From Isosphaeraceae bacterium (GTDB taxonomy: Bacteria; Planctomycetota; Planctomycetia; Isosphaerales; Isosphaeraceae), in the NCBI GenBank assembly GCA_965199885.1, contig CBDATT010000002.1, positions 1 to 64,000 on the forward strand: a stretch of 64,000 bases of DNA. The letters run 5' to 3'. Every line of letters begins with the position of its first letter. Within the stretch, counting starts at the first letter, position 1. A model generated the notes under the pieces. The model searched no databases. It was given only the letters and a program-made list of their open reading frames with translations, and was not told where the DNA came from. Below, piece after piece: positions 2,844 through 23,470 of the stretch. The position numbers and the translations under genes are program-made.

Positions 2844-4378
2844 TGCGACTCCTTCGTGCCACTCTGGGCGTCGTAGTACGGGGCGCTGGTGTCGTAGGCG
2901 TCGAAGTTTTCGATCGAGTTGGAGACGATCTGCCCGGTCCGCGTGAACAGCGTCAAGAGCCGCCGTTCTCCCTTCAGGAACGTCGGGCCGGCATAGTTGG
3001 CGGCCCCCTGCGGCAGCGGCAGCAGGTACGTTTGCGGGTTCGATGTGTCGGTGTAATGCGGATTTACTTTTGGCTTGAGAAGGGTCGTCGTCCCGATCGC
3101 CTGCTCGCCCCAGAGGGGGGCCGAGAGGTCTTCGCGCTCGGTGATCCAGAAGTGGAGGAACGGCAAGTTGGCGACCGGCGAGTTGGTGTAATAGCCACCG
3201 CCACCCGACCCGGTCCCCTGTGTGACCACGCGCCCCGACTGGTCGATCAAAACATCGACATTTCCCGAGAACGGATCGACCGGTAACCGCGACCGTTCCG
3301 GCAGCATGATCGAGTAACCCGGCTGGCTCGATACTGCCGCGTTCCAGGTCGTCAGGTCGATAACGGCCCCCGCCGGCAGCGTGGTCTCAGCGGAGTTCGG
3401 CGAGACGACCGGGCGACGGATGATCGTGTAGTTCGCGTTCGCTGGCGGCGATGACGAGTAGATCCCTTCAAACACTTCTTTTTCGTACTCGTCACCGATG
3501 AGCATCTCGTGGGGACCATCAATGACCCCATCTTGGTCATCGTCGATCCCGTTGTGCCCAGGGTCGATATAGCCGTCGCCGTCGTTGTCGATCCCGTCGC
3601 ACCCTTCGTCGATCCAGCCGTCGCCGTCGTCGTCGATCCCGTTCATGAGGTTGAGGTATTCAAGCACCGGCGTGTAAATCGGCGTTGCGGGATTTGGCGA
3701 GACAGGTACGTCGCCGAAATAAGCCAGAGAGGTCTCGCTGGCCAGACTCCCATAGGAAATGTACCTTTCGGGGTTGGCTGGTATTGCCCCCGTCGTCGCC
3801 GTTGAGGTGTGCATCGGCCCAACGATGGTATAGAACGGCCCCGAATCATTGAAGCGGATCTTGTCGCCCTGACGGATGTTATATTGCCACCCGGTGGGAG
3901 CGTTTTGAATGTATGCAGTGCCGCTGCTGGTCACTGTCGAGGTAACCTCTGCAGCCCCGACCCGCAGGTATTGCACAGAAGCCCCGGTCGAGTCGATCAG
4001 GTTAGAGGCCACCGGCACAAACGTACCACCGTTGACAACCCCCTCATGGTAATCGGGTGCCGGCTCGATCGGGACGAACCGGTTCGAGGCCAATGGCGAG
4101 CCATCCTGGGCATTGTTGAGAAAGTTGAAGGTCGGATCAGGCAGGAGCCGGATACCGCGGGGGGCGTTGGCGCGGATGGCGGCGTCGCGGGCACCGGAGA
4201 GGGCGGCTTGCAGGACGCGGGCGGCCTCGCTGACCCGCCGCTCGTTGAGCGCGGGCAGGATGACCGGTAGCGCCACGGCGCTGATCAGGCCGATGATGGC
4301 GACCACCACCAGCAGTTCGATCAAGGTGAAGCCCCGGGGCCGGAGCCGGGGGGCGATGGGATGCGTCGTCGCGGGCAT
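2840..4378 (-). CDS. prepilin-type N-terminal cleavage/methylation domain protein with acidic DxDxDG calcium-binding-like repeats (512 aa)
   Basis: N-terminus MPATTHPIAPRLRPRG|[15 protein letters not shown]. An internal block GIDDDGDGWIDEGCDGIDNDGDGYIDPGHNGIDDDQDGVIDG is present. Its start overlaps the stop of the upstream gene by 1 nt (TGATG). Confidence 0.65.
   Translation of the reverse strand: MPATTHPIAPRLRPRGFTLIELLVVVAIIGLISAVALPVILPALNERRVSEAARVLQAALSGARDAAIRANAPRGIRLLPDPTFNFLNNAQDGSPLASNRFVPIEPAPDYHEGVVNGGTFVPVASNLIDSTGASVQYLRVGAAEVTSTVTSSGTAYIQNAPTGWQYNIRQGDKIRFNDSGPFYTIVGPMHTSTATTGAIPANPERYISYGSLASETSLAYFGDVPVSPNPATPIYTPVLEYLNLMNGIDDDGDGWIDEGCDGIDNDGDGYIDPGHNGIDDDQDGVIDGPHEMLIGDEYEKEVFEGIYSSSPPANANYTIIRRPVVSPNSAETTLPAGAVIDLTTWNAAVSSQPGYSIMLPERSRLPVDPFSGNVDVLIDQSGRVVTQGTGSGGGGYYTNSPVANLPFLHFWITEREDLSAPLWGEQAIGTTTLLKPKVNPHYTDTSNPQTYLLPLPQGAANYAGPTFLKGERRLLTLFTRTGQIVSNSIENFDAYDTSAPYYDAQSGTKESQ
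3515..3640 (-). repeat. degenerate repeats of gtcgatccc / gtcgccgtcg encoding D-rich DxDxDG units in prepilin protein 3
   Basis: Repeated gtcgatcccgtt...gccgtcgccgtcgtt units on the plus strand encode GIDDDGDGWIDEGCDGIDNDGDGYIDPGHNGIDDDQDGVIDG. Confidence 0.5.
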
Positions 4379-6132
4379 CAGCGAACTCCCGTGCTGGGGG
4401 CCGAGGTGTTGTGGTTGGTGATATCGTCCAGCCCGGCATCGGTCTGGAGGTAGACGGTAGTGCCACTACTGGCGTCGGGGATTTCGAAGAAATGGCCCGA
4501 GGTCGCGGCATTCAGGCGGGCAATCGGGTTGGATTGCGACGCCTGGTTCTCGATGAGGATCAGGGCCTGCGTGTTGGCCTGAATAGTGGTCGCCGGGGCG
4601 ATCGGGAATGTGAAATTGGACCCCGACGAATCCGCCGTCAGCGCTGAATAATCCTTCGAAAACTGGGCGACCCCAGGTTCTTTATCGGGACCTGATGACA
4701 GGATCAGGAACTTCGAGAAGTAGGCCCGGCGATCGTACACGCCCGTCCGGTCCCATCCGGTTCCCGCTGGCGGTGTCGGGCTGGCGACGGGGCTGGTGAC
4801 CGGATCGACCAGGATGCCGAAGTAGTGCATGAATCCGAGTGCGCCTTTGCTCTGGCCGGGTAAGCTGCCATCCGGAGCGGTGAATGTTGGGCCGTAAGGA
4901 TGCGCAGTCGGTGCAGTTGTGAACCCGGGGTTGGCCAGCGCGGTCCACCAGCCGGGCGAAACCAGATACTGGTTCGGGTCGAGCGGGTCGAGTTGGCGGG
5001 TCTCGCTGTAGCCGTTGTACGGGGCGCTCCCCTTCTGCGTGTCGGACGAGCCGGGGACCGCACCGTAGTAGATCGGCAAGCGGAAGAACTGGAGCGGTTC
5101 GCCCCAGGCATCGACAAACTCGGGGAGGCCATCGCCGTCGGTATCGGCCACTTCGCGGGCGGTGAACTCGTCGCGGTTGAAGACGCTGCCGAGCGGGCCG
5201 ACCCCTTCGACCAGGACGGCATAAAGCATCTCGGCCCGTGCTGTCTTGTGTGTGTGCAGGGCCAACCGAGCATTGACGGCGCTCAGAAAGCTGGCTCCTG
5301 CCGGGCTCCCGTTGACCAGAACCTCGCTTAGTTCGTCGATAAAGCCGTTGGCGTTGTTGTCGCCGCCATCGAACGCCTGCGTGACGTTGACGGTTGTGCC
5401 CGAGTTTGCCGTGATCAGGTCGCTTGCCGCCGCCGCGTACAGGTTTTTGTAGACACCACCCGCCGCCGCGAACGAGGCGCCAAACATCCCTGTCACCGAG
5501 AGTTGGTTGTTATCGTTCGGATAAGGGTTGGTGATATTCGTTGAGGAGTCGCCATATCCTTCAAACAAGCCGCCCGCAGTCGTGTAGGGCGCTGTCGGCG
5601 AAGCGATGTTCGGATCACGGACAAAACCAATCCCCAACGGTACGACATAATTAGACAGACTCGTCCCACCAACAGGAAAGGCTGATGCAGCGAAGTTGAG
5701 CGGGTAAAACGCGCTGAAGGCGGCCCCATCAGTCGTGGCCGAGTTGAGATAAAAGACGTCGGGCAGTTCCGACCGGAGGTAGTCATACTGGGCGATCACC
5801 TGCGCCCGCCGCTCATCCGAGCCACCCGACGACACTGAACCGACCGGAATATAGTTACCACTGGCCAGGAAGTTGATCGCCGCCAGGTAGCGATGCGTCT
5901 GGTTGACCGGTGCCGTCGCGTTGAGCAGCGCATCGAGCCGGTCGGCGACGCCGGTTTCGAGTTTGGTGATGATTGTCTGCGTGGCGCGTTCCTCAGCACG
6001 ACGGACACCGTCGGCGGCGGCAACCAGGATCAACGAGATGATCAGCCCGATGATCGCGATCACCACCAGGAGTTCGATCAACGTGAAACCCGATGGGCTT
6101 CGCTTGTGCTCGTCGCGGGGGTATCGTCGCAT
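4378..6132 (-). CDS. prepilin-type N-terminal cleavage/methylation domain protein (about 584 aa)
   Basis: The ORF track begins at 6348. The prepilin motif MRRYPRDEHKRSPSG|[15 protein letters not shown] begins at the internal Met (codon 6132-6130), which has an AAGGAA Shine-Dalgarno-like sequence upstream. The upstream 216 nt of the ORF coincide with a conserved terminator-like hairpin, so the start was moved. Confidence 0.6.
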   Translation of the reverse strand: MRRYPRDEHKRSPSGFTLIELLVVIAIIGLIISLILVAAADGVRRAEERATQTIITKLETGVADRLDALLNATAPVNQTHRYLAAINFLASGNYIPVGSVSSGGSDERRAQVIAQYDYLRSELPDVFYLNSATTDGAAFSAFYPLNFAASAFPVGGTSLSNYVVPLGIGFVRDPNIASPTAPYTTAGGLFEGYGDSSTNITNPYPNDNNQLSVTGMFGASFAAAGGVYKNLYAAAASDLITANSGTTVNVTQAFDGGDNNANGFIDELSEVLVNGSPAGASFLSAVNARLALHTHKTARAEMLYAVLVEGVGPLGSVFNRDEFTAREVADTDGDGLPEFVDAWGEPLQFFRLPIYYGAVPGSSDTQKGSAPYNGYSETRQLDPLDPNQYLVSPGWWTALANPGFTTAPTAHPYGPTFTAPDGSLPGQSKGALGFMHYFGILVDPVTSPVASPTPPAGTGWDRTGVYDRRAYFSKFLILSSGPDKEPGVAQFSKDYSALTADSSGSNFTFPIAPATTIQANTQALILIENQASQSNPIARLNAATSGHFFEIPDASSGTTVYLQTDAGLDDITNHNTSAPSTGVR

Positions 6133-6283
6133 GGCGTCCGCCGTTCCTTTGTTCGCTGCCCGTCGCTGCGCTACTGACTCACTCACCAATGAACCATTCC
6201 GCCCGATCCGGGGCGGATCGACTCCAAGCCGACCCGCCCCACCCTGCGATCCGAACCGTTTCCTACGGAACGAGTCAGTGCCG

Positions 6284-6336
6284 AAAAAGAGGGACAGGCA
6301 CCGCTCCTGCGTCGCTTGAGCCAGTCCCCTTTTTCT
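6284..6336. terminator. conserved bidirectional terminator-like hairpin (copy 1): A-tract, 9-bp GC stem, conserved 21-nt loop, T-tract
   Basis: AAAAAGAGGGACAGGC-ACCGCTCCTGCGTCGCTTGAG-CCAGTCCCCTTTTTC lies immediately 3' of the minus-strand prepilin gene (stop at 6364) and 5' of the next gene (start at 6132). Confidence 0.5.
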
Positions 6337-6363
6337 CGACCCCTCCACGCGCCAGGAAATCGC

Positions 6364-7545
6364 TTAGTCGAGCCGACCACCCGAGAAGTTGGTGATGTTG
6401 TCGCTCTCACGCTGGCGAATACCCGTCTGGTCATCACCGTTGATATTGCCGGGGTCGGTTGCCACCGGCAGCATCGGCAACTTGCCGTTGCCTCCCAGGC
6501 TATTTTGCACATAAGTCCCACCCAGGCCGTAGTACCGATCCTGCCCGGCGGAAAAGAGCTGGAACGAGTTCGGATTCAGCCACGAGACCGTCCCCGATGC
6601 CGCCGGCCCCGAGGTGTAGGGGTTCGGCGAGGGGGAAATATCCAGGGTGGACGCCGTGTTGGTCCCCGACAGATACACCGGGAAGTTGACCAGGAAGCCG
6701 CGAGCCACCGGCGTGCTGCCGTCTTCCTCGAACTCGTAGTCGATCGCCGTCGCCGAGTTGTGGCCGAGCCCATTGATGTCGTTCGGGTCGTACGAGTTCG
6801 TGCCGTACGAGGCGAAGTAGGCATAAGCGCGGCGGTTGCCCGGCGTGATGTCGAGCGGGTCGAGGTACGACGGGATGTGGTCGCCGTCAAGGTCCACCAA
6901 TCGGCCGGCGACGAACTCGTAGTTGGCCGCTGTCCGGTTGGTGGCGAGGGTGCTGTTGATGAACGGATTCGTCGGGAGCTTGCTGAACCCACTCACGCCG
7001 GTGACGACGCCGTTGTTCAGGATCGGAATCCCGCCGAGGAAGAAGGTCAGGCATTCCGACCCATTCAAAAGGGTGGCATGCCCCAGGGCACCGTCATTGA
7101 TCCCGTTGCCGTTGAAGTCGAAGAAACCAGGGCTCGTCGGCGGGACCAGAAAGTTGACCCGCGGCCAGAACGACCGGAGGATGGCCAGCGACCGGTTAGC
7201 GAGGTCCTTGTCGGTGATGTCGGAATCGTTCGACCCGGCGCCGGCGATTGCGGTGCCTGCTGCTGAGGCGAAGAAGGCGGTAAACCCCGCCTCGGGCAAC
7301 AAGACCCGGCTCGGCGGGAAGGCGCCATAGGTCGTCTTGAAGCTCGCCAGCGCGGTCGCCATGTTGTTCAACTCGGCGGCGACCTGCGCTTCGCGGGCTC
7401 GCCGGAACGCACCCGCAATCGCGGGGAGCAAGAGCGCCAGCAGGATGGCGATGATCAGGATCACAACCAGAATTTCCACCAGCGTGAAGCCAAGCCGGCG
7501 GCTGCCAGAGCCAGGGCGAAGGTCGGGGCGGTCGGGGCGGTCCAT
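6364..7545 (-). CDS. prepilin-type N-terminal cleavage/methylation domain protein (about 394 aa)
   Basis: The prepilin motif MDRPDRPDLRPGSGSRRLG|FTLVEILVVILIIAIL starts at the internal Met (7545-7543). The upstream part of the ORF is a Pro-rich low-complexity artefact. The start coordinate is uncertain and could extend as far as 7749. Confidence 0.55.
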   Translation of the reverse strand: MDRPDRPDLRPGSGSRRLGFTLVEILVVILIIAILLALLLPAIAGAFRRAREAQVAAELNNMATALASFKTTYGAFPPSRVLLPEAGFTAFFASAAGTAIAGAGSNDSDITDKDLANRSLAILRSFWPRVNFLVPPTSPGFFDFNGNGINDGALGHATLLNGSECLTFFLGGIPILNNGVVTGVSGFSKLPTNPFINSTLATNRTAANYEFVAGRLVDLDGDHIPSYLDPLDITPGNRRAYAYFASYGTNSYDPNDINGLGHNSATAIDYEFEEDGSTPVARGFLVNFPVYLSGTNTASTLDISPSPNPYTSGPAASGTVSWLNPNSFQLFSAGQDRYYGLGGTYVQNSLGGNGKLPMLPVATDPGNINGDDQTGIRQRESDNITNFSGGRLD

Positions 7546-7770
7546 CGGTCGAAGCTCCGCGGAAGGTGGTTCAGGAGGAGAAACAGGTTTACCCAGGACA
7601 ACGAAACCAGTGTGTTTTGGGGACGACCCGGGCCAGACCCGCCGGGCGGCACCGGGGGCCGCTCCGCTCCGCGCCGGCAGCCGGATCGCGGCGGAAGGTG
7701 AATCAACCGGGTCGATTTCAGGGTGACCAGGCAACGAAGGGAGGATCAACCGCGCGGAGCGAGGACGTCC

Positions 7771-9211: not shown

Positions 9212-10930
9212 TCACTCGTCGTCGAGCATGGTTTCGCGGATGATCTCTTCGATCGACGTTTGCCCGGTGTGGATCGCTTCGAGCCCCGACTCGCGGAGGG
9301 TTCGCATCCCGTACTTCCGGCACTCGTCGCGGAAAGCGTCGAGCGACGCTTCGGAGACGACCATCTCGCGGAGGTGTTCGTTCATGACCAGGAGTTCATA
9401 GATCCCCATCCGCCCCTTGTACCCGGTGTTGTTGCACTTCTCGCAACCCTTGCCGTAGTAGAACTTTTTCGACGCGGCGACCTCGGGGGTCATCCCCAGC
9501 TCCATCGCCACTTCGGGACTCGGGGTGAACTCGGTCCGGCAGTTGGTGCAGATCCGCCGGACGAGCCGTTGCGCGAGCACCGCCTCGATCGTCGCGGTGA
9601 TCAAGAACGTCGGGATACCCATGTCACGGAGCCGGGTGATCGCCGACGGCGCGTCGTTGGTGTGCAGCGTCGTGAAGACGATGTGCCCGGTCAACGACGC
9701 CTGAATCGCGATCTCGGCGGTTTCAAGGTCGCGGGTCTCACCGACGAGGATCTTGTCGGGGTCTTGCCGCAGGATCGCCCGCAAGCAGGCGGCGAACGTC
9801 ACCCCGATCTCGCCGTTGATCGGCACCTGGATCAGGCCGTCGATGTCGTACTCGACCGGCTCCTCGGTGGTGATGATCTTTTCTTCCGGCGTGTTCAACT
9901 CGTTGAGCGTGGCGTAGAGCGTCGTCGTCTTGCCCGACGACGTCGGCCCGGTCACCAGGATGATCCCGTTCGGCTTGTGGATGATCTCGCGCCAGACCAC
10001 CAGCGTATCCTCGGGCATGCCGATCTTGCGGATGTCGAGGTTGACCACGGTCCGGTCGAGGATTCGCAGCACGACGCTCTCACCGAACAGGGTCGGCAGG
10101 GTCGAAACGCGGATATCGACCTGGTTACCGCCGATCGCCAGCTCGATCCGGCCGTCCTGCGGCAGCCGACGTTCGGCGATGTCGAGGTTCGACATGACCT
10201 TGATGCGCGACGAGATCGCGGGGGCCAGGTGGCGGGGCGGCGGCACGAGTTCATAGAGGATGCCGTCCACCCGGTACCGCATCTTGTACTCGTCTTCAAA
10301 CGGCTCGAAGTGGATGTCCGACGCCTTGTCCTTGATGGCGAGCAGGAGCACCATGTTCAGGAGCTTGCGAACGGGCGCGGCCTCGGCCATTTCCTCGATC
10401 GCTTCGAGGTCGATCGTGTTTTCGTTCCGGTTCTGGAACTGCGACAGCCCCTTGTCGTTTTCGATCTGCTTGACGACGTCCTGAATCGACTCCTGCTTGC
10501 CGGCATAGAGGCGCGTGATCGCCGCCATCACGTCGGATTCCGCCGCGATCACCCCTTTGACGTCGACGCCGAGGAACGACTTGATGCTGTCGAGCGTCTG
10601 CGGGTCGCGGGGGTCGGCCATCGCGACGGTGACGCTCTTGTCCTTCTTGTGCTGCGAGACCGGGACGATCTTGAACGTCGTCGCCATCGTCTCGTTGACC
10701 AGCTCGGTCAACTCGGCGGGCACCGCCATCTCACCGAGCCGAACCACCTTCATGCCGAACTGTTCGCCGAGCGCCTTGAGCACCTGATCCTCGGTGACCA
10801 CGCCGAGGCGCACCGCGACCTTGCCCAGCAGCTCGTTATCCGACCGCTTCTGCTCTTCGAGCACCTTCCAGAGGGTATCGTCGCTGATGTACCCCATGTC
10901 GACCAGGATCGTGCCGATTCGCCGAGCCAT
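9212..10930 (-). CDS. GspE/PilB-family secretion ATPase with N-terminal T2SSE_N domain
   Basis: 572 aa. Walker A box GPTSSGKTTTLYA, Asp box, His box, and a tetracysteine motif CTNC...CEKC are present. The N-terminal region resembles the GspE N-domain. Confidence 0.85.
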   Translation of the reverse strand: MARRIGTILVDMGYISDDTLWKVLEEQKRSDNELLGKVAVRLGVVTEDQVLKALGEQFGMKVVRLGEMAVPAELTELVNETMATTFKIVPVSQHKKDKSVTVAMADPRDPQTLDSIKSFLGVDVKGVIAAESDVMAAITRLYAGKQESIQDVVKQIENDKGLSQFQNRNENTIDLEAIEEMAEAAPVRKLLNMVLLLAIKDKASDIHFEPFEDEYKMRYRVDGILYELVPPPRHLAPAISSRIKVMSNLDIAERRLPQDGRIELAIGGNQVDIRVSTLPTLFGESVVLRILDRTVVNLDIRKIGMPEDTLVVWREIIHKPNGIILVTGPTSSGKTTTLYATLNELNTPEEKIITTEEPVEYDIDGLIQVPINGEIGVTFAACLRAILRQDPDKILVGETRDLETAEIAIQASLTGHIVFTTLHTNDAPSAITRLRDMGIPTFLITATIEAVLAQRLVRRICTNCRTEFTPSPEVAMELGMTPEVAASKKFYYGKGCEKCNNTGYKGRMGIYELLVMNEHLREMVVSEASLDAFRDECRKYGMRTLRESGLEAIHTGQTSIEEIIRETMLDDE

Positions 10931-11183
10931 GCATCCACCCTTCTTCCGCGCGGGCCAATCGTGTCCGGACTTTTGCTTGCCGCGATCAGGTCAGATTGAG
11001 TTGAATTCGAGCAGCCCGGACCAGAACGGCCCAGGCGAGGACTAGAATGAAGTGGCGAGTCCGGGGAAGACTCGCCGCGAGGCAAACCTGGATTGCTGTT
11101 GGACTTTGGACGCCTGGCGACCCCAAAAAGTTTCCGGCGTGTTGCTGAATTGCATCAACCGGCCGTCACCGAGCCGCCGAGTT

Positions 11184-12293
11184 TCAATCGTCCTCTTCCT
11201 CCGCCTCGTCGTCGTCCATGATCCCCTTTTTGGCGTTGTCGATGCGTCCCCGCAACTCTTCCGGTTTCCGCGACTTGTACATCGCTTCCTCTTCCGTGAT
11301 CAGCCCCTGCTTCCACAGGTTATACAGGCTGTCATCGAGGAGGATCATCCCGTGTTTGCGCCCGGTCTGAATCGACGAGTCGATCCGGTACGTCTTGTTT
11401 TCGCGGATCAGGTTCGAGATGGCGGGGGTGACGACGAGCATCTCGTACGCGGCGACCAGCCCCTTGGGGATGCGGGGCACAAGCGCCTGCGCGAGCACCC
11501 CGAGGATGGCGACGGAAAGCTGCGTGCGGATCTGGTCCTGCTGTTCCTTCGGGAACACGTCGATGATCCGGTTGACCGTTCCTTCAGCCGAGTTCGTGTG
11601 CAGCGTCCCGAAGACGATGTGCCCGGTCTCGGCGGCGGTGACGGCGGCCTGAATCGTCGCGAGGTCACGCATTTCGCCGACGAGGATGATGTCGGGGTCC
11701 ATCCGGAGGGCACGCCGAATCGCCTCGGGGAAGTCGGGAACGTCGATCCCGATCTCGCGCTGGTTGATCAGCGACTTCTTGTGCTTGTGGTAGTACTCGA
11801 TCGGGTCTTCGATCGTGATGATGTGCCGGTCCATGTTGTCGTTGATCCAGTTGATCATCGACGCCAGGGATGTCGTCTTGCCCGACCCCGTCGGCCCCGT
11901 CACGAGGATCAAACCGCGCGGCCGTTGAATCAACTGCTCCATGACGGCCGGCAACCCGAGTTGCTGGAACGTCAGGAATTCGTTCGGCACCCGTCGGAGG
12001 ACCAGGCCGATATTGCCGCGCTGCTTGAAGATGGCAACGCGGAACCGGGCGGCATCACCGAAGGCGAACCCAAAGTCGCACCCGCCGACTTCCTGCAACT
12101 CCTGCTGGCAGCGTTCGGGGGTGATCGACTTCATCAGGGCCGAGGTGTCCGACGACTCAAGCACCTTTGTATTGAGCGGGACCATGTGCCCGCCCAGCCG
12201 GAGCATCGGCTTTGAGCCGACGGTCAGGTGGAGGTCGCTGGCCTTTTGGGTCACGACCGTTTGCAACAACTTGTCGATCAGCAGCGTTCCCAT
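11184..12293 (-). CDS. pilT: twitching motility / pilus retraction ATPase PilT family
   Basis: 369 aa with no N-terminal GspE domain. Walker A box GPTGSGKTTSLASMIN and the PilT-type AIRRALRMDPDIILVGEMRD and His box are present. It has an acidic C-terminal tail DDDEAEEEDD. Confidence 0.85.
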   Translation of the reverse strand: MGTLLIDKLLQTVVTQKASDLHLTVGSKPMLRLGGHMVPLNTKVLESSDTSALMKSITPERCQQELQEVGGCDFGFAFGDAARFRVAIFKQRGNIGLVLRRVPNEFLTFQQLGLPAVMEQLIQRPRGLILVTGPTGSGKTTSLASMINWINDNMDRHIITIEDPIEYYHKHKKSLINQREIGIDVPDFPEAIRRALRMDPDIILVGEMRDLATIQAAVTAAETGHIVFGTLHTNSAEGTVNRIIDVFPKEQQDQIRTQLSVAILGVLAQALVPRIPKGLVAAYEMLVVTPAISNLIRENKTYRIDSSIQTGRKHGMILLDDSLYNLWKQGLITEEEAMYKSRKPEELRGRIDNAKKGIMDDDEAEEEDD

Positions 12294-12632
12294 GAGCGAG
12301 TCGAACCTTTCGCGGAGACTCCGCCAACATCAACCCCACCAGCGCGAGTCGGGGGGTTGACTTTGTCCTGTCGACTAGATGTCCACCGAAAAGGCACCAC
12401 TTTCCGATCGGAAGTGGCGGACCGAGAGAACGATCGGTCCACACCTGATTATTTCGGTGGACAAGGGGAGGATCAAGCACGCCCCCCGAGCGAATTTCGT
12501 CGTAAGCGGCGACGACGGCTCGAATCTCAGGGCAGATCCGAGCCGTCGCGGGGGTCTTGTGGGACGACCCAAACCGGGATCATCCCGAGCAATCCAATGA
12601 GTAGAGACAGTTGGTATTGCGTGCGGTCCGAA

Positions 12633-14366
12633 TCATGTGCCGGTTTCGGACATCGACTCGTGGTGGGTGATCCGGAGGATCTCGTCGATCGTCGTCAGCC
12701 CCTTGAGAGCCTTGATGATCCCGTCCTCGAACAACGTGTGCATCCCCTGTTTCCGAGCGGCTTTACGGATGACGTTGGTCGGTTCCCCCTTGAACGTCAT
12801 GTCGCGGATGGTGCTGGTCATCACCATCAACTCATGGATACCCATCCGGCCCCGGTAGCCCGTCTTGTTGCAGTTCGAGCACCCCTTGCCCTTCATGAAG
12901 TTCGCCTTCTTGGCGATCTCGGGACGGATGCCGATCGACTTCAAAACGTGCGCGGCGGGCTCGTACCGAACCTTGCACTTCGGGCAGATTTTCCGGACCA
13001 ACCGCTGCGCCATGATCCCCATAACCGAGCTGGCGACGAGGAACGGTTGCACGCCGATATCGACCAGTCTTGTTACAGCACTGGGCGCATCGTTCGTGTG
13101 CAGTGTACTGAAAACCAAGTGTCCTGTCAGGCTGGCCTGGATCGCCGTGTTGGCCGTCTCCTCGTCGCGGATTTCCCCGACCAGGAGGATGTTCGGATTT
13201 TGCCGGAGCATGGCCCGGATGATCCGCGCGAACGTCATGCCGATCTTGGCCTTGACCTCGCACTGGTTGACGCCGGGGAGGTAGTACTCGACCGGGTCCT
13301 CGGCGGTGATGATCTTGACGTCGGGGCGGTTCAACTCGTTGAGCGCGGCGTACAGGGTGGTCGTCTTGCCCGACCCCGTCGGCCCGGTCACGAGCAAGAT
13401 CCCGTTCGGCCGTTTGATCAGAGCCTGGAACCGCTTCCAGTTGTCGTCGGAGAATCCCATGTCGCGTAGACTGACCTTGATGTTATCGCGGTCCAGGATT
13501 CGCATGACGACCGACTGGCCATGGTTGGTCGGCAGGATCGAGACGCGGAGGTCGATGTCCTTGCCGGCGACGTGGATCTTGATCCGGCCGTCCTGCGGGC
13601 GCCGTTTTTCGGCAATGTCGATCGACCCCATGATCTTGATACGACTGACCATCGCCCCGAGGAGCCGGCGCGGGGCCGAGTCGCGCTCGACGCAAACGCC
13701 GTCGATCCGGTAGCGAATTCGGACCCGGTCGCCGAACGGTTCGATGTGGATGTCGGAGGCACGGGTGACGACCGCTTCCTGAATGATCAGGTGGACCAAC
13801 CGGATGACCGGCGCGTCGCCTTCTTCGAGCGTGTTTGCCGACGACCCGCTCTTGCCGGCCCCTGGACCTTCGTCGGAGAAGTCGATCGCGGTGTCGGTAA
13901 ATTCCGAGATCATCGAGTCGATCGACTCGGATTCCTGCGACTTGCCGCCATAATACTTGTTGATCGCTTCGAGGATCGCTTCCTTTGACGCCAGCGCCAC
14001 GTCGATCTCGCGGTTCAGGACGAACCGGAGTTTGTCGACCGTCTCGAAGTCGTTCGGGTTGGCCATGATGACCCGGATCATCCCGTTGACCGACGAGAGC
14101 GGCATCACGATGTTTTCGCGCGCGAGCGACTCAGGGACGAGTTCGAGCACCGACGCCGGGATGTCGATATCACGGAGCGCGATGAAATCCATGCTGAACT
14201 GCTCAGCCTTGGCCTTCATCACATCGTCGGTATCAACGTAACCGAGTTTCGCCAGCGCATCTTCCAGCGGCATGTTGCCCATCCGCTGGGCTTCCTTGAG
14301 CTGGTCGGGTCCGATCACCCCGCGCTTGACGAGGATATCGCTCCACTCACGAGCTTGCTTGGCCAT
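12633..14366 (-). CDS. second GspE/PilB-family secretion ATPase (paralogue of the 9212-10930 gene)
   Basis: Walker A box GPTGSGKTTTLYAA and a tetracysteine motif CPKC...CSNC. The start was moved to the Met at 14366, which has GGAGGA 6 nt upstream. Together with the other ATPases it flanks pilT. Confidence 0.8.
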   Translation of the reverse strand: MAKQAREWSDILVKRGVIGPDQLKEAQRMGNMPLEDALAKLGYVDTDDVMKAKAEQFSMDFIALRDIDIPASVLELVPESLARENIVMPLSSVNGMIRVIMANPNDFETVDKLRFVLNREIDVALASKEAILEAINKYYGGKSQESESIDSMISEFTDTAIDFSDEGPGAGKSGSSANTLEEGDAPVIRLVHLIIQEAVVTRASDIHIEPFGDRVRIRYRIDGVCVERDSAPRRLLGAMVSRIKIMGSIDIAEKRRPQDGRIKIHVAGKDIDLRVSILPTNHGQSVVMRILDRDNIKVSLRDMGFSDDNWKRFQALIKRPNGILLVTGPTGSGKTTTLYAALNELNRPDVKIITAEDPVEYYLPGVNQCEVKAKIGMTFARIIRAMLRQNPNILLVGEIRDEETANTAIQASLTGHLVFSTLHTNDAPSAVTRLVDIGVQPFLVASSVMGIMAQRLVRKICPKCKVRYEPAAHVLKSIGIRPEIAKKANFMKGKGCSNCNKTGYRGRMGIHELMVMTSTIRDMTFKGEPTNVIRKAARKQGMHTLFEDGIIKALKGLTTIDEILRITHHESMSETGT

Positions 14367-15245
14367 TGAGGTCCTCCGGAAGAAGGCGCGGAAGGTGATG
14401 GGACAGGATGCGAAAGCCAATCAGATTGGATCAAAACGTCGGCGCGGCGCGGCGACGGGACACATCGCGAACGGAAGCGCCCCCTGCATCATTCTAGCTT
14501 GTCGAGACGATGCGTGAATCCAGGGGTCGGCAAATGGCGGGGATTCACCCTGTCGGCGGTGATCGACTCGCAGGTCGCCTCAACGGCGCAACAGGATGCC
14601 AACCGGCCGGATCAACGCGGAATTGCGCGGCCGATCTTTCCCCAGGCTACCACGCCCACCCCTGACCCACAAGCGGCGCAGGCAAAAACCAGTCTCTATC
14701 AGAGATCTTAGATTTGTTGTGTGGGTGCAACCCACCGTGAATTTGACCTGCTCCCACCAGGCACCTCGAATCAGATTCTGTGGTCTTTCAATGACCACGC
14801 CCACGATCAATGGGATCCCACTTTGTAAAGTCTGGATCTGGCAAAGAATTGACGCTCTGCCATCCGAAACTTCCCCCCTTCGGAGGCGGAGATGAGTACC
14901 AGCGCAAGAAAGGCGACCTCGCCTCGTCCGATGTGGCCTTACGAACCCGATTAGATTGTCTTAAATAGGGCGATGTGGACAGATTATTGAAAATTCGGAA
15001 ATTATTTTGCCAAAGTAAACTGAAATGTCTCGCGATCTCCGATACTATTTCTGTTCAAACGTGCCGACGGTTGCGTCCCGGTCGGGTGGGTGTCAGTTTT
15101 CCGGGGCCAGATTCTGCCTTTTTTGGTCGGTTCCGGTCCACCGCACACGGGGGGCGGCACCCCCTCGACCAGGACGCAACTGGGGCGCATGGGAGCCTCG
15201 CATCGTCGAATTTCACACCCAGGATCGCCGAGGGAGTCTGCATCC

Positions 15246-16214
15246 ATGAGCACTTCCGCCGCTCGGATCGAAGCCAACCGTAAAAACGCTCAGCTCAGCA
15301 CCGGTCCGACCAGCGTTGCCGGCAAGGCGGCGTCGCGGGGCAACGCCCTGAAGCATGGCCTGACCGCGACCGTCGTGGATCTCCCGCCCGACCATGCTCT
15401 GGCCCAGGGGGTCAACCTGCCTGGAGCAGCCTGGGGTAATGGCCAGATCAGGCGGGTGATGAGCCAGATCGACCGCGCCCAGCGGATCGAAGCCGACCTC
15501 CGCGCCGCGGCGGTCTGGCGTGCCCGGACGATGTGGCACGACGACCGCCAGGTCGAGGTCGCGCACCTGGGCGCCACCCTTGCCCGCGACCCGGCCCGCG
15601 TTGCGCTCTTGCTCCAGCAGACCCCGCACGGCTGCGACTGGCTGCTCGAGCGCTGGCGTGGGTTGGCGCGGGTGGTCGAGGCGGGCACGCTCTGGAACGA
15701 CGAGCAAAGCGAGTTGGTTTTCGACATGCTTGGCGTCCCTCGGCCGATCCGGACCGGCTTCCCGACCGGCACAACGCCGGATGATCAGGCCCGCCTGGCG
15801 CGCAATGTCCTGACGGACCTCACGGCGCGCCACGCCCGCGTCGTCGAGGCCGATGAGGTGGCCCGAAAGTTGGCCAGCAACGACGCCCGCGATACCCCGA
15901 CCGTCGAACTCCGCCAGGTCCGCCGCTACGAGCTTGGCCTGTTCCGTCAGCTCCGCTGGCTCCTCTCGACCACGTTCGGACCCACACCCGTTGCCGCGCC
16001 ATCCGATCCCGCTGAGCCAACCGTCGCCGAATCCGCCGCACCAAACGAAGCCATTCCTCCTGCCGAAACGAAGCCAACTCAGCCCGAGCCCGACGTGGTG
16101 CTTGACGACGAATCGGCTCCTCGACCGGCTCGGAGGCATCCCGACCCGGCCAAACTGGCCCAGCGCGACCGCAAAAATCGGCGCAAGCGGCAAGGTCAAA
16201 GTCGCTCTCGCTGA
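15246..16214 (+). CDS. hypothetical protein, member of a two-copy paralogous family in this window (N-terminal motif SAARxEANRxNAQLSxGP...KHGLT)
   Basis: Start chosen at MSTSAARIEANRKNAQLSTGPTSVAGKAASRGNALKHGLTA, which aligns with the N-terminus of the 54311 gene. The Pro-rich C-terminal tail is shared. Paralogy supports the plus strand over the antisense ORF 15213-16235. Confidence 0.45.
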   Translation: MSTSAARIEANRKNAQLSTGPTSVAGKAASRGNALKHGLTATVVDLPPDHALAQGVNLPGAAWGNGQIRRVMSQIDRAQRIEADLRAAAVWRARTMWHDDRQVEVAHLGATLARDPARVALLLQQTPHGCDWLLERWRGLARVVEAGTLWNDEQSELVFDMLGVPRPIRTGFPTGTTPDDQARLARNVLTDLTARHARVVEADEVARKLASNDARDTPTVELRQVRRYELGLFRQLRWLLSTTFGPTPVAAPSDPAEPTVAESAAPNEAIPPAETKPTQPEPDVVLDDESAPRPARRHPDPAKLAQRDRKNRRKRQGQSRSR

Positions 16215-20161: not shown

Positions 20162-20560
20162 TCAACGCTCGTACAGTTCGATCGGCAGGCCGTCAGGATC
20201 GGCGAAGAAGGTGAACCGCTTGCCCGTGAACTCGTCGACCCGGATTGGCTCGACGTGGACCCCATGTTCGGCCAGGCTGGCGACGGCCGCATCGAGGTCA
20301 GCGACTTCGAATGCGAGGTGCCGGAGGCCGCGGGCTTCGGGGTAACTCGGTCGAGGCGGAGGAGACGGGAACGAGAACAGCTCGATCTGGCTGCCGTCGG
20401 GCAACTGGAGGTCGAGTTTGTACGAGCTCCGCTCGGCCCGGTGGACCTCGCGGATGACCGGTAGGCCGAGGATCTCGGTGTAGAACGCCTTCGACCGGGC
20501 GTAGTCCGAGCTGATGATGGCGACGTGGTGGACTCGAAGGATGGCGAGCGGTGCGGGCAT
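20162..20560 (-). CDS. VOC family protein (glyoxalase I / bleomycin-resistance fold)
   Basis: About 133 aa from the internal Met MPAPLAILRVHHVAIISSDYARSKAFY. The HHVA...E...H...E spacing is typical of vicinal oxygen chelate enzymes. The upstream ORF extension overlaps the terminator hairpin. Confidence 0.6.
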   Translation of the reverse strand: MPAPLAILRVHHVAIISSDYARSKAFYTEILGLPVIREVHRAERSSYKLDLQLPDGSQIELFSFPSPPPRPSYPEARGLRHLAFEVADLDAAVASLAEHGVHVEPIRVDEFTGKRFTFFADPDGLPIELYER

Positions 20561-20675
20561 GATGGCCTCGGTCGTGGGGCTTCGAAACGAGGATGGGCTC
20601 CCGGCCTTCGTCGAGAGCCCACCCACTTATTCCAGGACCGACGCGGTTAACCAAGCCAAAGGCGAAGGCCAGCCG

Positions 20676-20728
20676 CAAGAAAGGGGACAGACACCGCTCC
20701 TCCGTCGCTTGAGTCAGTCCCCTTTTGC
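20676..20728. terminator. conserved bidirectional terminator-like hairpin (copy 2), near-identical to 6284-6336
   Basis: GAAAGGGGACAGAC-ACCGCTCCTCCGTCGCTTGAG-TCAGTCCCCTTTTG lies immediately 3' of ppdK (stop at 20798) and 5' of the VOC gene. The loop differs by 1 nt from copy 1. Confidence 0.5.
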
Positions 20729-20797: not shown

Positions 20798-23470
20798 TCA
20801 ACGGTCGCGGCTGATCGACTTGCCGTCGGCGAGGGCCGCCTGCGCAGCGGCGAGGCGGGCGATCGGGACGCGGAAGGGGGAGCAGGAGACGTAGTCCATG
20901 CCGACCTTGTGGCAGAACATGACAGACTCGGGGTCGCCGCCGTGCTCGCCGCAGATCCCGACCTTGAGGTGCTCGCCTTTGGCCTTGCGGACGGCGCGGC
21001 CCTTGGTGGTCCCCATCTCGACAAGCTGGCCCACGCCCGAGGCGTCGAGCGTCTGGAACGGGTCCACCGGCAGGATCTTGTGCTCGACGTAGGCTGGCAC
21101 GAACGAGCCGATGTCGTCGCGGCTGAACCCGAAGGTCATCTGCGTCAGGTCGTTGGTCCCGAACGAGAAGAACTCGGCCTCCTCGGCGATCTTGTCGGCC
21201 GTCAGGGCAGCGCGGGGTACCTCGATCATGGTGCCGATCAGGTACTCGACCTTGGCGCCCGCCTTGGCCATGCACTCGTCGGCGATCCGGATCGCCCGCT
21301 TCTTGAGGAACGACAGCTCCTCGACGGTCCCGACGAGCGGGATCATGATCTCGGGCAGGACGTTCTTGCCCGCCTGCTTGACCTGAATGGCGGCCTCGAT
21401 GATGGCCCGGACCTGCATGTCGCCGATCTCGGGGAACTTGATCGCCAGGCGGCAACCACGGAGCCCGAGCATCGGGTTGGCCTCGTGGAGCGAGGCCACG
21501 CGGTCCTTGACCTTCTGGACCGGCACGCCCAGCTGCTTGGCGACTTCAGCCTGACCGGCCTCGTCGTGCGGCAGGAACTCGTGCAGGGGCGGGTCGAGCA
21601 GGCGGATCGTGACGGGCAGGCCGTCCATCGCCTCGAAGAGACCGACGAAGTCGGCCTTCTGGTAGGGTTCGAGCGCGGCGAGGGCCGACTTCCGGCCAGC
21701 CTCGTCGTCGGCGAGGATCATCTTCCGCATGTCGACGATCCGCTGCCCCTCGAAGAACATGTGCTCGGTCCGGCAGAGGCCGATCCCCTCGGCGCCGAAC
21801 TCGCGGGCCTTGAGCGCGTCCTTGGGCGAGTCGGCGTTGGTCCGCACTTTCATGGTCCGAACCTTGTCGGCGTAGGCCATGTAGGTGGCGAAGCTGCCGC
21901 TCATCTGAGCGTCGATCGTCGGGACCTGGCCGATCATGACGTCGCCGGTGGTCCCGTCGATGGTCAGCCATTCGCCGACCTTGACGACCTTGCCGCCGAT
22001 CGTGATCTGGCCGCCCTTCTCGTCGATCTGGAGGGCGTCGCAGCCGACCACGCAGGGCTTGCCCCAACCGCGGGCGACGACCGCCGCGTGGCTGGCCTTG
22101 CCGCCGGTCGCGGTCAAAATCCCCTTGGCCAGGTGCATCCCGGCGACGTCTTCGGGGCTGGTTTCCTTCCGGACGAGCATGATCGACTCGCCGGGGTGCT
22201 TCTCGGCGTACTCAACGGCAGCTTCGGCCGAGAGGATCACCTTGCCGGCAGCGGCTCCCGGGCTGGCGGCGATTCCCTGCGCAACGGCCTTGACGTCGGC
22301 CTTGGGGTCAAGGCTGGGCAAGAGCAGGTGGTTCAAGTCGTTCGGGTTGACCCGGTTGATGGCGGTATGCTCGGTGATCAGACCGGCTTCAACCATCTCG
22401 ACGGCGATCCGCACAGCCGAGCTGCCGGTTCGCTTGCCGGTCCGGGTTTGCAGCATATAGAGGGTGCCGTCCTGGACGGTGAACTCGATATCCTGCATCT
22501 CCTTGTAGTGCTGTTCGAGCTTCTGACGGATACCCATGAGCTGGTCATAGACCTTGGGCATGTCGTCCTGGAGGCGGCTGATCGGCTCGGGGGTCCGGAT
22601 GCCGGCGACGACGTCCTCACCCTGGGCGTTGATCAGGTAGTCGCCATAGAAGACGTCTTCGCCGGTGTTCGGGTCGCGGGTGAAGGCGACGCCGGTGCCC
22701 GAGTTCTCGCCCATGTTGCCGAAGACCATCGCCTGGACGTTGACGGCGGTGCCCTTCAGGCCGGTGATCCGCTCGATCCGGCGGTACTCGATCGCCTTCT
22801 TGCCTTCCCAGCTATTGAAAACGGCCATGATGGCCTTCCAGAGCTGGTCCTTCGGGTCCTGCGGGAAGTCCTCGCCGGTCCCTTTTTTGTAGACCGCCTT
22901 GTACTTCGTGACCAGTTCCTTGAGGTCGTCACCCGACAGTTCGGTGTCGAGCTGGACGCCGCGAGCATGCTTCAAGGTGTGGAGTTCATGCTCGAACAGC
23001 TCGTGCTCGACCCCCATGACGACCGAGCCGAACATGTCGATCAACCGGCGGTAGCCGTCGTAGGCGAACCGGACGTTGCCGGTCTTCTTGGCCAGCCCTT
23101 CGGTCGCCACGTCGGACAGACCAAGGTTGAGAATCGTGTTCATCATCCCGGGCATCGAGAGCGCAGCACCCGAGCGGACCGAGACGAGGAGAGGGTCGGC
23201 CGGGTCGCCGAGCTTGGCCCCCATCTCCTTTTCCACCTGGGCGATGGCGGCTTCGACCTGCGGCTTGGTCAGTTCGGGGAGCTTCTTCCCCAGCTCGTAA
23301 TACTCAGCGCAGACCTCGGTCGTGATCGTGAAGCCGGGGGGCACGGGGATACCGATCACGCTCATCTCGGCCAGGTTGGCCCCTTTGCCGCCGAGCAAGG
23401 ACTTCATGTCGGCCTTGCCCTCAGCCTTACCACCGCCGAAGGAATACACATACTTGTGCGAGTCGGACAT
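20798..23470 (-). CDS. ppdK: pyruvate, phosphate dikinase
   Basis: 890 aa with an N-terminal ATP-grasp region (GGKGANLAEM), the central phospho-His domain (GGKASHAAVVARGWG), and a C-terminal PEP-utilizer TIM barrel (ICGE...GMDYVSCSPFRVP). PPDK is unmistakable. Confidence 0.95.
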   Translation of the reverse strand: MSDSHKYVYSFGGGKAEGKADMKSLLGGKGANLAEMSVIGIPVPPGFTITTEVCAEYYELGKKLPELTKPQVEAAIAQVEKEMGAKLGDPADPLLVSVRSGAALSMPGMMNTILNLGLSDVATEGLAKKTGNVRFAYDGYRRLIDMFGSVVMGVEHELFEHELHTLKHARGVQLDTELSGDDLKELVTKYKAVYKKGTGEDFPQDPKDQLWKAIMAVFNSWEGKKAIEYRRIERITGLKGTAVNVQAMVFGNMGENSGTGVAFTRDPNTGEDVFYGDYLINAQGEDVVAGIRTPEPISRLQDDMPKVYDQLMGIRQKLEQHYKEMQDIEFTVQDGTLYMLQTRTGKRTGSSAVRIAVEMVEAGLITEHTAINRVNPNDLNHLLLPSLDPKADVKAVAQGIAASPGAAAGKVILSAEAAVEYAEKHPGESIMLVRKETSPEDVAGMHLAKGILTATGGKASHAAVVARGWGKPCVVGCDALQIDEKGGQITIGGKVVKVGEWLTIDGTTGDVMIGQVPTIDAQMSGSFATYMAYADKVRTMKVRTNADSPKDALKAREFGAEGIGLCRTEHMFFEGQRIVDMRKMILADDEAGRKSALAALEPYQKADFVGLFEAMDGLPVTIRLLDPPLHEFLPHDEAGQAEVAKQLGVPVQKVKDRVASLHEANPMLGLRGCRLAIKFPEIGDMQVRAIIEAAIQVKQAGKNVLPEIMIPLVGTVEELSFLKKRAIRIADECMAKAGAKVEYLIGTMIEVPRAALTADKIAEEAEFFSFGTNDLTQMTFGFSRDDIGSFVPAYVEHKILPVDPFQTLDASGVGQLVEMGTTKGRAVRKAKGEHLKVGICGEHGGDPESVMFCHKVGMDYVSCSPFRVPIARLAAAQAALADGKSISRDR

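Follow-up and report, generated by a model that had tools for sequence, protein, structure and literature searches.

Dispersed terminator-like hairpin repeats downstream of genes in Isosphaeraceae: a probable small lineage-specific family

Two hairpin copies and their neighbouring genes

The stretch of DNA analysed here, 64 kb long and referred to below as the window, carries two copies of a hairpin repeat, each located between tandem genes on the minus strand. Copy 1 (6284-6335, minus strand) lies between a type IV pilin or pseudopilin-like gene with an N_methyl motif (6364-7749, minus strand), whose stop codon is 28 nt before the repeat, and a second pseudopilin-like gene (4378-6132, minus strand), whose true start, the ATG at 6132, is 151 nt from the end of the copy. 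Copy 2 (20679-20727, minus strand) is found 70 nt after the stop codon of ppdK, which encodes pyruvate, phosphate dikinase (20798-23470, minus strand), and 118 nt before the start of a glyoxalase/VOC-family gene (20162-20560, minus strand). The tandem arrangement claimed in an earlier note on this DNA was confirmed for both copies by the gene coordinates and domains. Both ppdK and PilC fall in the Isosphaeraceae, and the best named relative by ppdK is Tundrisphaera lichenicola (87%).

It had also been claimed that the motif creates spurious N-termini in the open reading frames running through it, and alignment and domain position agreed that the real starts lie downstream. The real pilin start in the alignment of relatives is the conserved AGGAACGGCGGACGCCATG at 6132, which comes with a Shine-Dalgarno sequence, and the longer reading frame that runs to 6348 through copy 1 is spurious. 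Similarly, when residues are numbered from a point just upstream of the ATG at 20560, the Glyoxalase domain starts at residue 10. With such N-terminal extensions at two window loci, masking of the repeat would improve start-site calls.

Direct reading of the letters showed that both hairpins exist in the window with the sequences quoted in the earlier note; the coordinates given there were 1-3 nt off, and the exact spans are those stated above. Copy 1 reads AAAAAGAGGGACAGGCACCGCTCCTGCGTCGCTTGAGCCAGTCCCCTTTTTC on the plus strand and copy 2 reads GAAAGGGGACAGACACCGCTCCTCCGTCGCTTGAGTCAGTCCCCTTTTG; on the minus strand, the sense strand of all four flanking genes, they become GAAAAAGGGGACTGGC-TCAAGCGACGCAGGAGCGGT-GCCTGTCCCTCTTTTT and CAAAAGGGGACTGAC-TCAAGCGACGGAGGAGCGGT-GTCTGTCCCCTTTC, respectively. 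Both copies have the same orientation, 14.4 kb apart, and they scored 82.4 and 80.1 bits with the covariance model R1. They shared 40 of 43 bases (93%, E=1.6e-12, blastn-short). A 39-nt pattern in which the three positions that differ were set to N matched the two copies only (0 matches expected from 100 shuffles), as did a 21-nt loop pattern with up to 3 mismatches; the pattern form of the repeat, for use with mismatches, is AAAGGGGACTGRCTCNAGCGA. When model R1 was run over the 64-kb window with filters off, a third copy was not found, which leaves n=2 in 64 kb. One weak match (20576-20638, 12.2 bits, E=0.25) was rejected as a family member; it is a different hairpin on the minus strand (GGGCTC/GAGCCC with a 14-nt loop) in the 5' leader of the glyoxalase gene and is probably unrelated to the repeat. 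Alignment of the copies with 100 nt on each side limited their likeness to about 50 nt, with abrupt limits at the A- and T-tracts, and the flanks were unrelated right to the edges of the element.

Other repeats were also present in the window. Three tandem T2SSE/PilB-like ATPase paralogues at 9650-13650 have many direct repeats of 30-117 nt in common, including the Walker-box regions, and they account for most of the direct repeat families of the window. At 15070-15180, where the first T2SS ATPase gene diverges from a plus-strand gene beginning at 15247, there is an inverted repeat of 23 nt, with arms 87% complementary and separated by 65 nt, that encloses a terminator-like GGGGCCAGATTCTGCCTT followed by TTTTGG.

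Homologous copies in a related genome and corresponding sites in relatives

BLAST of the motif against the loci of relatives revealed three clear copies in L054 (ENA ERZ25071720 contig_7), a related Isosphaeraceae genome with a ppdK 95% identical at the amino acid level and 89% at the nucleotide level, of which 22.7 kb was covered. These copies scored 83-88 bits with model R1. The hairpin of copy A (6277-6327) has the same strand sense and lies in an element at 6238-6359, that of copy B (6462-6515) is inverted in an element at 6432-6553, and that of copy C (14275-14327) is inverted in locus coordinates in an element at 14245-14366. Copies were thus found at densities of two per 64 kb in the window and three per 22.7 kb in L054. 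The finding of three further homologous copies bears out the earlier proposal of a repeat family rather than of independently evolved terminators. All five copies occupy non-orthologous sites, all are intergenic and downstream of a CDS, and four of the five face the same way with respect to the gene upstream. The genes around the copies (pilin, ppdK, glyoxalase, sdhB/L28 and a DUF7310 gene) have unrelated functions.

In all three L054 copies the hairpin forms the centre of an element of about 122 nt with 22-bp terminal inverted repeats, GGGTGCGCCAACGGATTCTGGC / GCCAGAATCCGTTGGCGCACCC. Five terminal-repeat arms were found in L054 with up to 2 mismatches, compared with 0 expected, and folding of the element gave a nested palindrome (z-scores of -4.4 to -7.5). 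Copy B is bordered at both ends by a 9-bp direct repeat, CACGAACAC, which may be a target duplication; by inspection, no target-site duplication was evident at the other four copies (copies 1 and 2 of the window, copies A and C of L054). The 22-bp arms were not found in the window with up to 3 mismatches, and the window copies end in AAAA/TTTT. Copy 1 is flanked by a degenerate outer palindrome that has only a degenerate likeness to the outer inverted repeats of L054. As the window copies have neither outer inverted repeats nor a target-site duplication, transposition is only a possibility for them.

Copies A and B form an inverted pair, each after a direct repeat of about 70 nt (ctggccag.ggcgga.tgggtcgaaggtg...). 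A segment of 3.07 kb (L054:6136-9203) is missing from the related locus L002, and the pair lies at the left edge of this segment. A cobalamin riboswitch (RF00174, 102 bits) was also observed within this segment, at L054:6618-6828 on the plus strand, and is followed by N_methyl/SBP_bac_10 and DUF4465 genes.

No motif copies were found by BLAST or model R1 in L002, L055-L060 and L061, which together cover about 110 kb from relatives. For copy 1, the pilin spacer was compared in L056, L057, L058 and L060, while L061 was left out as too short to reach the spacer. In these four relatives the spacer was without the motif and about 100 nt shorter. The distance from the pilin stop codon to a conserved hairpin at 6210-6240 is about 25-35 nt in relatives and about 123 nt in the window, where the extra spacer (6241-6363, minus strand) holds copy 1 and shows as a window-specific block opposite an alignment gap of about 88 nt. 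Copy 1 appears, from the aligned spacers, to have been added just upstream of the 6210-6240 hairpin. L057 and L058 also have this intercistronic hairpin between the two pseudopilin genes (GGGGCGGGTCGGCTTGGAGTCGATCCGCCCC, minus strand); its consensus stem of 13 bp (-24.7 kcal/mol) shows two compensatory pairs, and it has no T-tract. One possible role is that of a native attenuator, or of a processing or stability element, setting the ratio of the upstream pilin to the downstream pilins.

At the 3' end of ppdK, four lineages with PpdK proteins 89-96% identical carry four unrelated hairpins past the stop codon (window 20679-20727; L056:12717-12749; L054:12721-12757; L057:2948-3035). The hairpin of L056 is GAGGCTGCCGGAT...ATCCGGCAGCCTC, that of L054 and L002 is CACGAGGCCGCTGGAT..., that of L057 is a palindrome with arms of about 30 bp, and in the window no strong hairpin other than the motif has a T-tract there. 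The gene that follows also varies by lineage, being a glyoxalase, T2SS ATPase or Uma2 gene or a convergent amidohydrolase gene. The differing hairpins show rapid turnover, with copy 2 in a slot that is held by terminator-like hairpins in relatives. The L28-sdhB spacer is about 97% identical between L054 and L002 except that L054 has the hairpin element and L002 a different, AT-rich palindromic element.

Larger collections were also searched. The loop pattern ACCGCTCCTNCGTCGCTTGAG gave one match in GTDB representative genomes, in a Hadarchaeota MAG, which was without stems and attributable to chance, and the loop core TCAAGCGACGNAGGAGCGG gave 51 matches in JGI metagenomes, all in unrelated sequence without stems. 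These exact patterns also missed the L054 copies because the L054 loops, GAGGWACGAGC(G), differ from the window type, GACGSAGGAGCGG. The patterns are thus so specific that the negative scans set no bound on how widely the family is spread. In viral contigs, both the stem-anchored core pattern and the terminal-inverted-repeat pattern were absent. BLAST against plasmids gave no match for the L054 element and insignificant Sinorhizobium matches only (E=0.2) for a window copy, so that no parent IS or transposase was identified, the viral-contig and plasmid searches having given no significant match. Six-frame translations of the motif compared with a protein database yielded 160 word-sharing candidates, none of which scored.

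Structure and conservation of the hairpin

The core of the repeat is about 50 nt long and consists of AAAA, GGGGAC.T.GGC, a 20-nt loop, GCC.T.GTCCCC and a T-tract. The minus-strand consensus of the window copies is AAAA-GGGGAC-T-GRC-(20-nt loop)-GYC-T-GTCCCY-T-rich. In the predicted fold, a 6-bp stem is followed by a T.T mismatch, a 3-bp stem and a mostly unstructured 20-nt loop. For copy 1, the outer stem P1 pairs 6290-6295 with 6324-6329, its outer pair being a G.U formed on the minus strand only; the mismatch is at 6296 / 6323, the inner stem P2 pairs 6297-6299 with 6320-6322, and the loop spans 6300-6319. The A- and U-tracts are able to lengthen the predicted helix of the window copies. 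The earlier note had described a 21-nt loop with one difference between the copies: the match of 20/21 is correct, but the loop is 20 nt once the closing C-G is paired, and in this count 19 of 20 positions are identical.

The note had further called the hairpin bidirectional and terminator-like, and the predicted architecture agrees, with a G+C stem between AAAA and a T-rich tail that is calculated to be stable on either strand. For the five copies folded as isolated 39-40-nt hairpins, the free energy was -13.9 to -22.1 kcal/mol on both strands (-13.9 to -17.8 kcal/mol for the window copies), and in each of the five copies, whichever strand is read, the first 8 nt past the stem include 4-6 T. 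Given this stability and the T-rich tails on either strand, the label is a fair one. The loops of intrinsic terminators are typically short, about 3-10 nt, and by this measure the repeat falls outside, its loop of 19-20 nt being far larger than the canonical one. A consensus terminator scanner allowing loops of 3-8 nt picked up a sub-hairpin of copy 1 only. Three further observations count against reading the repeat as a terminator. Folding z-scores were modest (-1.5 to -1.9 for 71-nt regions around the window copies), terminator-like sites were not enriched in the window (14, compared with 16.6 in shuffles), and copy 1 lies within an apparent pilin operon, where full termination would deprive the downstream genes. 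Rfam gave no match in the window at the gathering threshold, and at permissive E-values it gave sub-threshold miRNA/sRNA noise only (E of 0.14 or higher).

Comparison of the five copies showed that the stems are better conserved than the loop. Little or no variation was seen in the AAAA, the two stems and three of the T's in the tail, and the variable columns numbered 6/20 in the loop and 3/18 in the stem, two of these three being one compensatory pair. Between genomes, 16-17 of 18 stem positions were identical, compared with 15-16 of 20 in the loop, a loop identity about equal to the ppdK third-codon identity of 0.76. The proposal in the earlier note that the conserved loop is a recognition site was therefore not supported, since the loop is the most variable part of the repeat between genomes and changes at about the third-codon level; the 20/21 match within the window instead reflects recent common ancestry.

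The stem covariation reported before (GGC/GCC versus GAC/GTC) is real in that the P2 stem of copy 2 carries a true compensatory double transition, from G-C to A-T, but it is a single event among five members. The chance that two of three substitutions would fall compensatorily on one pair is about 0.011, and in a covariation check on the five sequences the observed value was reached in 96 of 500 shuffles. One compensatory pair is thus suggestive of covariation, not decisive. Alternative helices within the loop (GCUC/GAGC and CGC/GCG) were considered and rejected, since they had no covariation support and the substitutions of the window copies break them.

Interpretation and comparison with known repeats

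To our knowledge, neither transcription termination nor the small repeat elements of Planctomycetota have received more than slight study. We favour, with some reservation, the reading that the two window sites belong to a small lineage-specific family of dispersed intergenic palindromic repeats, which most likely act as a terminator or a 3'-end protective hairpin. Homology of the copies, the family members of a second genome, absence at the orthologous sites of relatives and the stronger conservation of the stem are observed; from these we infer a mode of mobility and a possible terminator activity. The family would spread, or be replaced, through a non-autonomous process resembling that of MITEs or REPs, and the core would land and persist just downstream of stop codons, being gained, lost and replaced at gene 3' ends. 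In the window the core alone would be recognisable, since it moves alone or since its outer repeats have decayed, and at the 3' end of ppdK it would take the place of the other terminator-like hairpins of relatives. The RNA of the core could then serve as a Rho-independent-like terminator or a 3'-end protective hairpin workable on either strand. The 3' placement, together with stems and A/T tracts that are kept while the loop drifts, makes such an RNA-level role the most likely one, and a function as terminator or 3'-end stabiliser is plausible on the predicted folds. A defined terminator-like repeat family would provide a handle on how high-GC planctomycetes end their transcripts and a case for terminator turnover by repeat insertion, while opening no new class of system.

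A more far-reaching version of this reading, which we regard as possible but doubtful, is that the core of about 50 nt is a self-contained, portable bidirectional terminator module and itself the unit of spread, present alone here and as MITE cargo in the sister lineage. If true, planctomycetes would acquire or replace 3'-end terminators by repeat insertion, not by local evolution, and this would explain why every lineage has a different hairpin after ppdK.

We consider it unlikely that the repeat is selfish or neutral DNA, namely a decayed MITE or REP-like relic whose A and T tracts are termini tolerated 3' of genes. Such a relic would be in keeping with the patchy distribution in close relatives, with the version bounded by terminal inverted repeats in L054, and with a loop whose size is atypical for terminators. 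The AAAA/TTTT ends of the SPRITE repeats of Streptococcus pneumoniae have been read as minimal terminal inverted repeats (PMC3049150), and conservation of the stem could equally serve recognition by a transposase at the DNA level. However, stems and tracts together exceed ppdK third-codon conservation (40-44 of 49 core positions identical between genomes, compared with 0.76), the one compensatory change keeps the pairing, and copy 2 sits in the slot of relatives' terminator-like hairpins.

The reading preferred in the earlier note, a structured functional RNA motif (cis-regulatory or the 3' end of an sRNA) with the long loop as a protein or RNA recognition site, is improbable. The nearly identical window loops and the compensatory stem change would suit it, some loops contain an SD/CsrA-like AGGA, and only in the minus-strand RNA can copy 1 form its outer G.U pair and the pairing around copy 2 be extended by G.U. 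A loop of this kind would be expected to be more conserved than the stem, with several covarying pairs, but the variable columns ran the other way with a single pair, and between genomes the loop is the least conserved part and roughly neutral. Furthermore, AGGA is missing from L054 copies B and C, the in-loop helices lack covariation support and a G-to-A change in the window breaks the GCUC/GAGC helix, the neighbouring genes are functionally unrelated, no Rfam family matched, and the motif is missing at the orthologous sites of relatives.

Two ordinary terminators that became alike through a one-off local duplication or gene conversion, with no family behind them, are a very improbable explanation. 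The small number, spacing and common orientation of the window copies and the scans with exact window loop patterns, which gave no genuine match in either the GTDB representative genomes or the JGI metagenomes, would agree with it, but it is already largely refuted by the three homologous L054 copies at other loci, and the window flanks are unrelated right to the edges of the element. Finally, a DNA-level protein-binding palindrome GGGAC-N28-GTCCC (an operator, nucleoid-protein or recombination site) is scarcely credible: its inverted half-sites are perfectly conserved in all five copies, but the copies are placed 3' of genes, not at promoters, GGGAC-N15-45-GTCCC is not enriched in the window (4 found, 7.1 expected), and inspection of the sequence found no integron attC or REP GTAG/CGTC signatures. 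Readings as an integron attC site, a CRISPR or a REP-tagged element were also ruled out on sequence.

Judged by its sequence, the repeat is no member of the SPRITE, MITE or REP families and would rather be a new member of that general kind, not a new RNA class. Its closest described analogue is the SPRITE of S. pneumoniae, a dispersed terminator-like repeat with AAAA/TTTT termini that is enriched at CDS 3' ends and has no known parent IS (PMC3049150). Like the repeat described here, SPRITE gives a transcript with a stem followed by a U-rich tract, has AAAA...TTTT termini and lies near CDS 3' ends; it is non-coding and without an obvious parent IS, and it shows a patchy presence within one species group (PMC3049150). 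The two have no sequence relationship. SPRITE is an AT-rich Firmicute repeat with an 18-bp duplex and a long U-tract (PMC3049150), whereas the planctomycete repeat is G+C-rich and bidirectionally symmetric, with a stem of 6+3 bp and a 20-nt loop, and in one genome it is nested in an element bounded by terminal inverted repeats.

MITEs, which have been proposed as providers of terminators (PMC10969869), include the Correia (CREE) elements of Neisseria and ERIC (PMC10969869), and the L054 version resembles them in being an intergenic element of about 122 nt with 22-bp terminal inverted repeats and a long hairpin. It is also insertion-polymorphic between relatives, with a possible 9-bp target duplication at one copy. 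As in MITEs, the dispersed non-coding copies show presence/absence polymorphism, with five copies at five non-orthologous sites and with orthologous positions observed to be empty or differently filled. The window copies differ in having no recognisable terminal inverted repeats or target-site duplications, and instead of a terminator-like core, Correia elements have promoters and sites for IHF and RNase III (PMC10969869).

REP, BIME and REPIN elements, which are mobilised by RAYT, share with the repeat the character of short extragenic imperfect palindromes 3' of genes that form species-specific families, and REPs have been implicated in termination and mRNA stabilisation (PMC3733652). The inverted pair of L054 copies A and B adds to the likeness. 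REPs also occur in Planctomycetes, and they carry terminal GTAG/CGTC tags (PMC3733652). The repeat has no such tag: it ends in AAAAGGGGAC...GTCCCCTTTT, and CGTC was confined to the window-type loop, the loops of L054 having none. Its stem is short for a 20-nt loop, and no RAYT was identified in the 64-kb window or the 22.7 kb of L054. As predicted from sequence, the repeat also resembles bidirectional intrinsic terminators, with a G+C hairpin between an A-tract and a T-tract 28-70 nt past stop codons; a loop of 20 nt and an internal T.T mismatch are unusual for these, and the copies are homologous repeats, not locally evolved structures.

Palindromic elements of other kinds were also observed in the lineage of L054. 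At L002:12690-12880, a nested palindrome of about 170 nt with inner arms of about 33 bp (GGGGTGCCACGGGTTCGGTACTCCGACCCCGTG...) separates the ppdK stop codon from the terminator-like hairpin; L054, otherwise collinear, does not have it, and it represents a second, unrelated MITE-like family. The L28-sdhB site seems to be a hotspot for palindromic cassettes of different kinds. The L002 element there (L002:14375-14540) is AT-rich, is made of GATTGCAAAT-type repeats and sits exactly at the site of the L054 hairpin element, bracketed by a 12-bp inverted repeat (CGCTGACGCAAG / CTTGCGTCAGCG).
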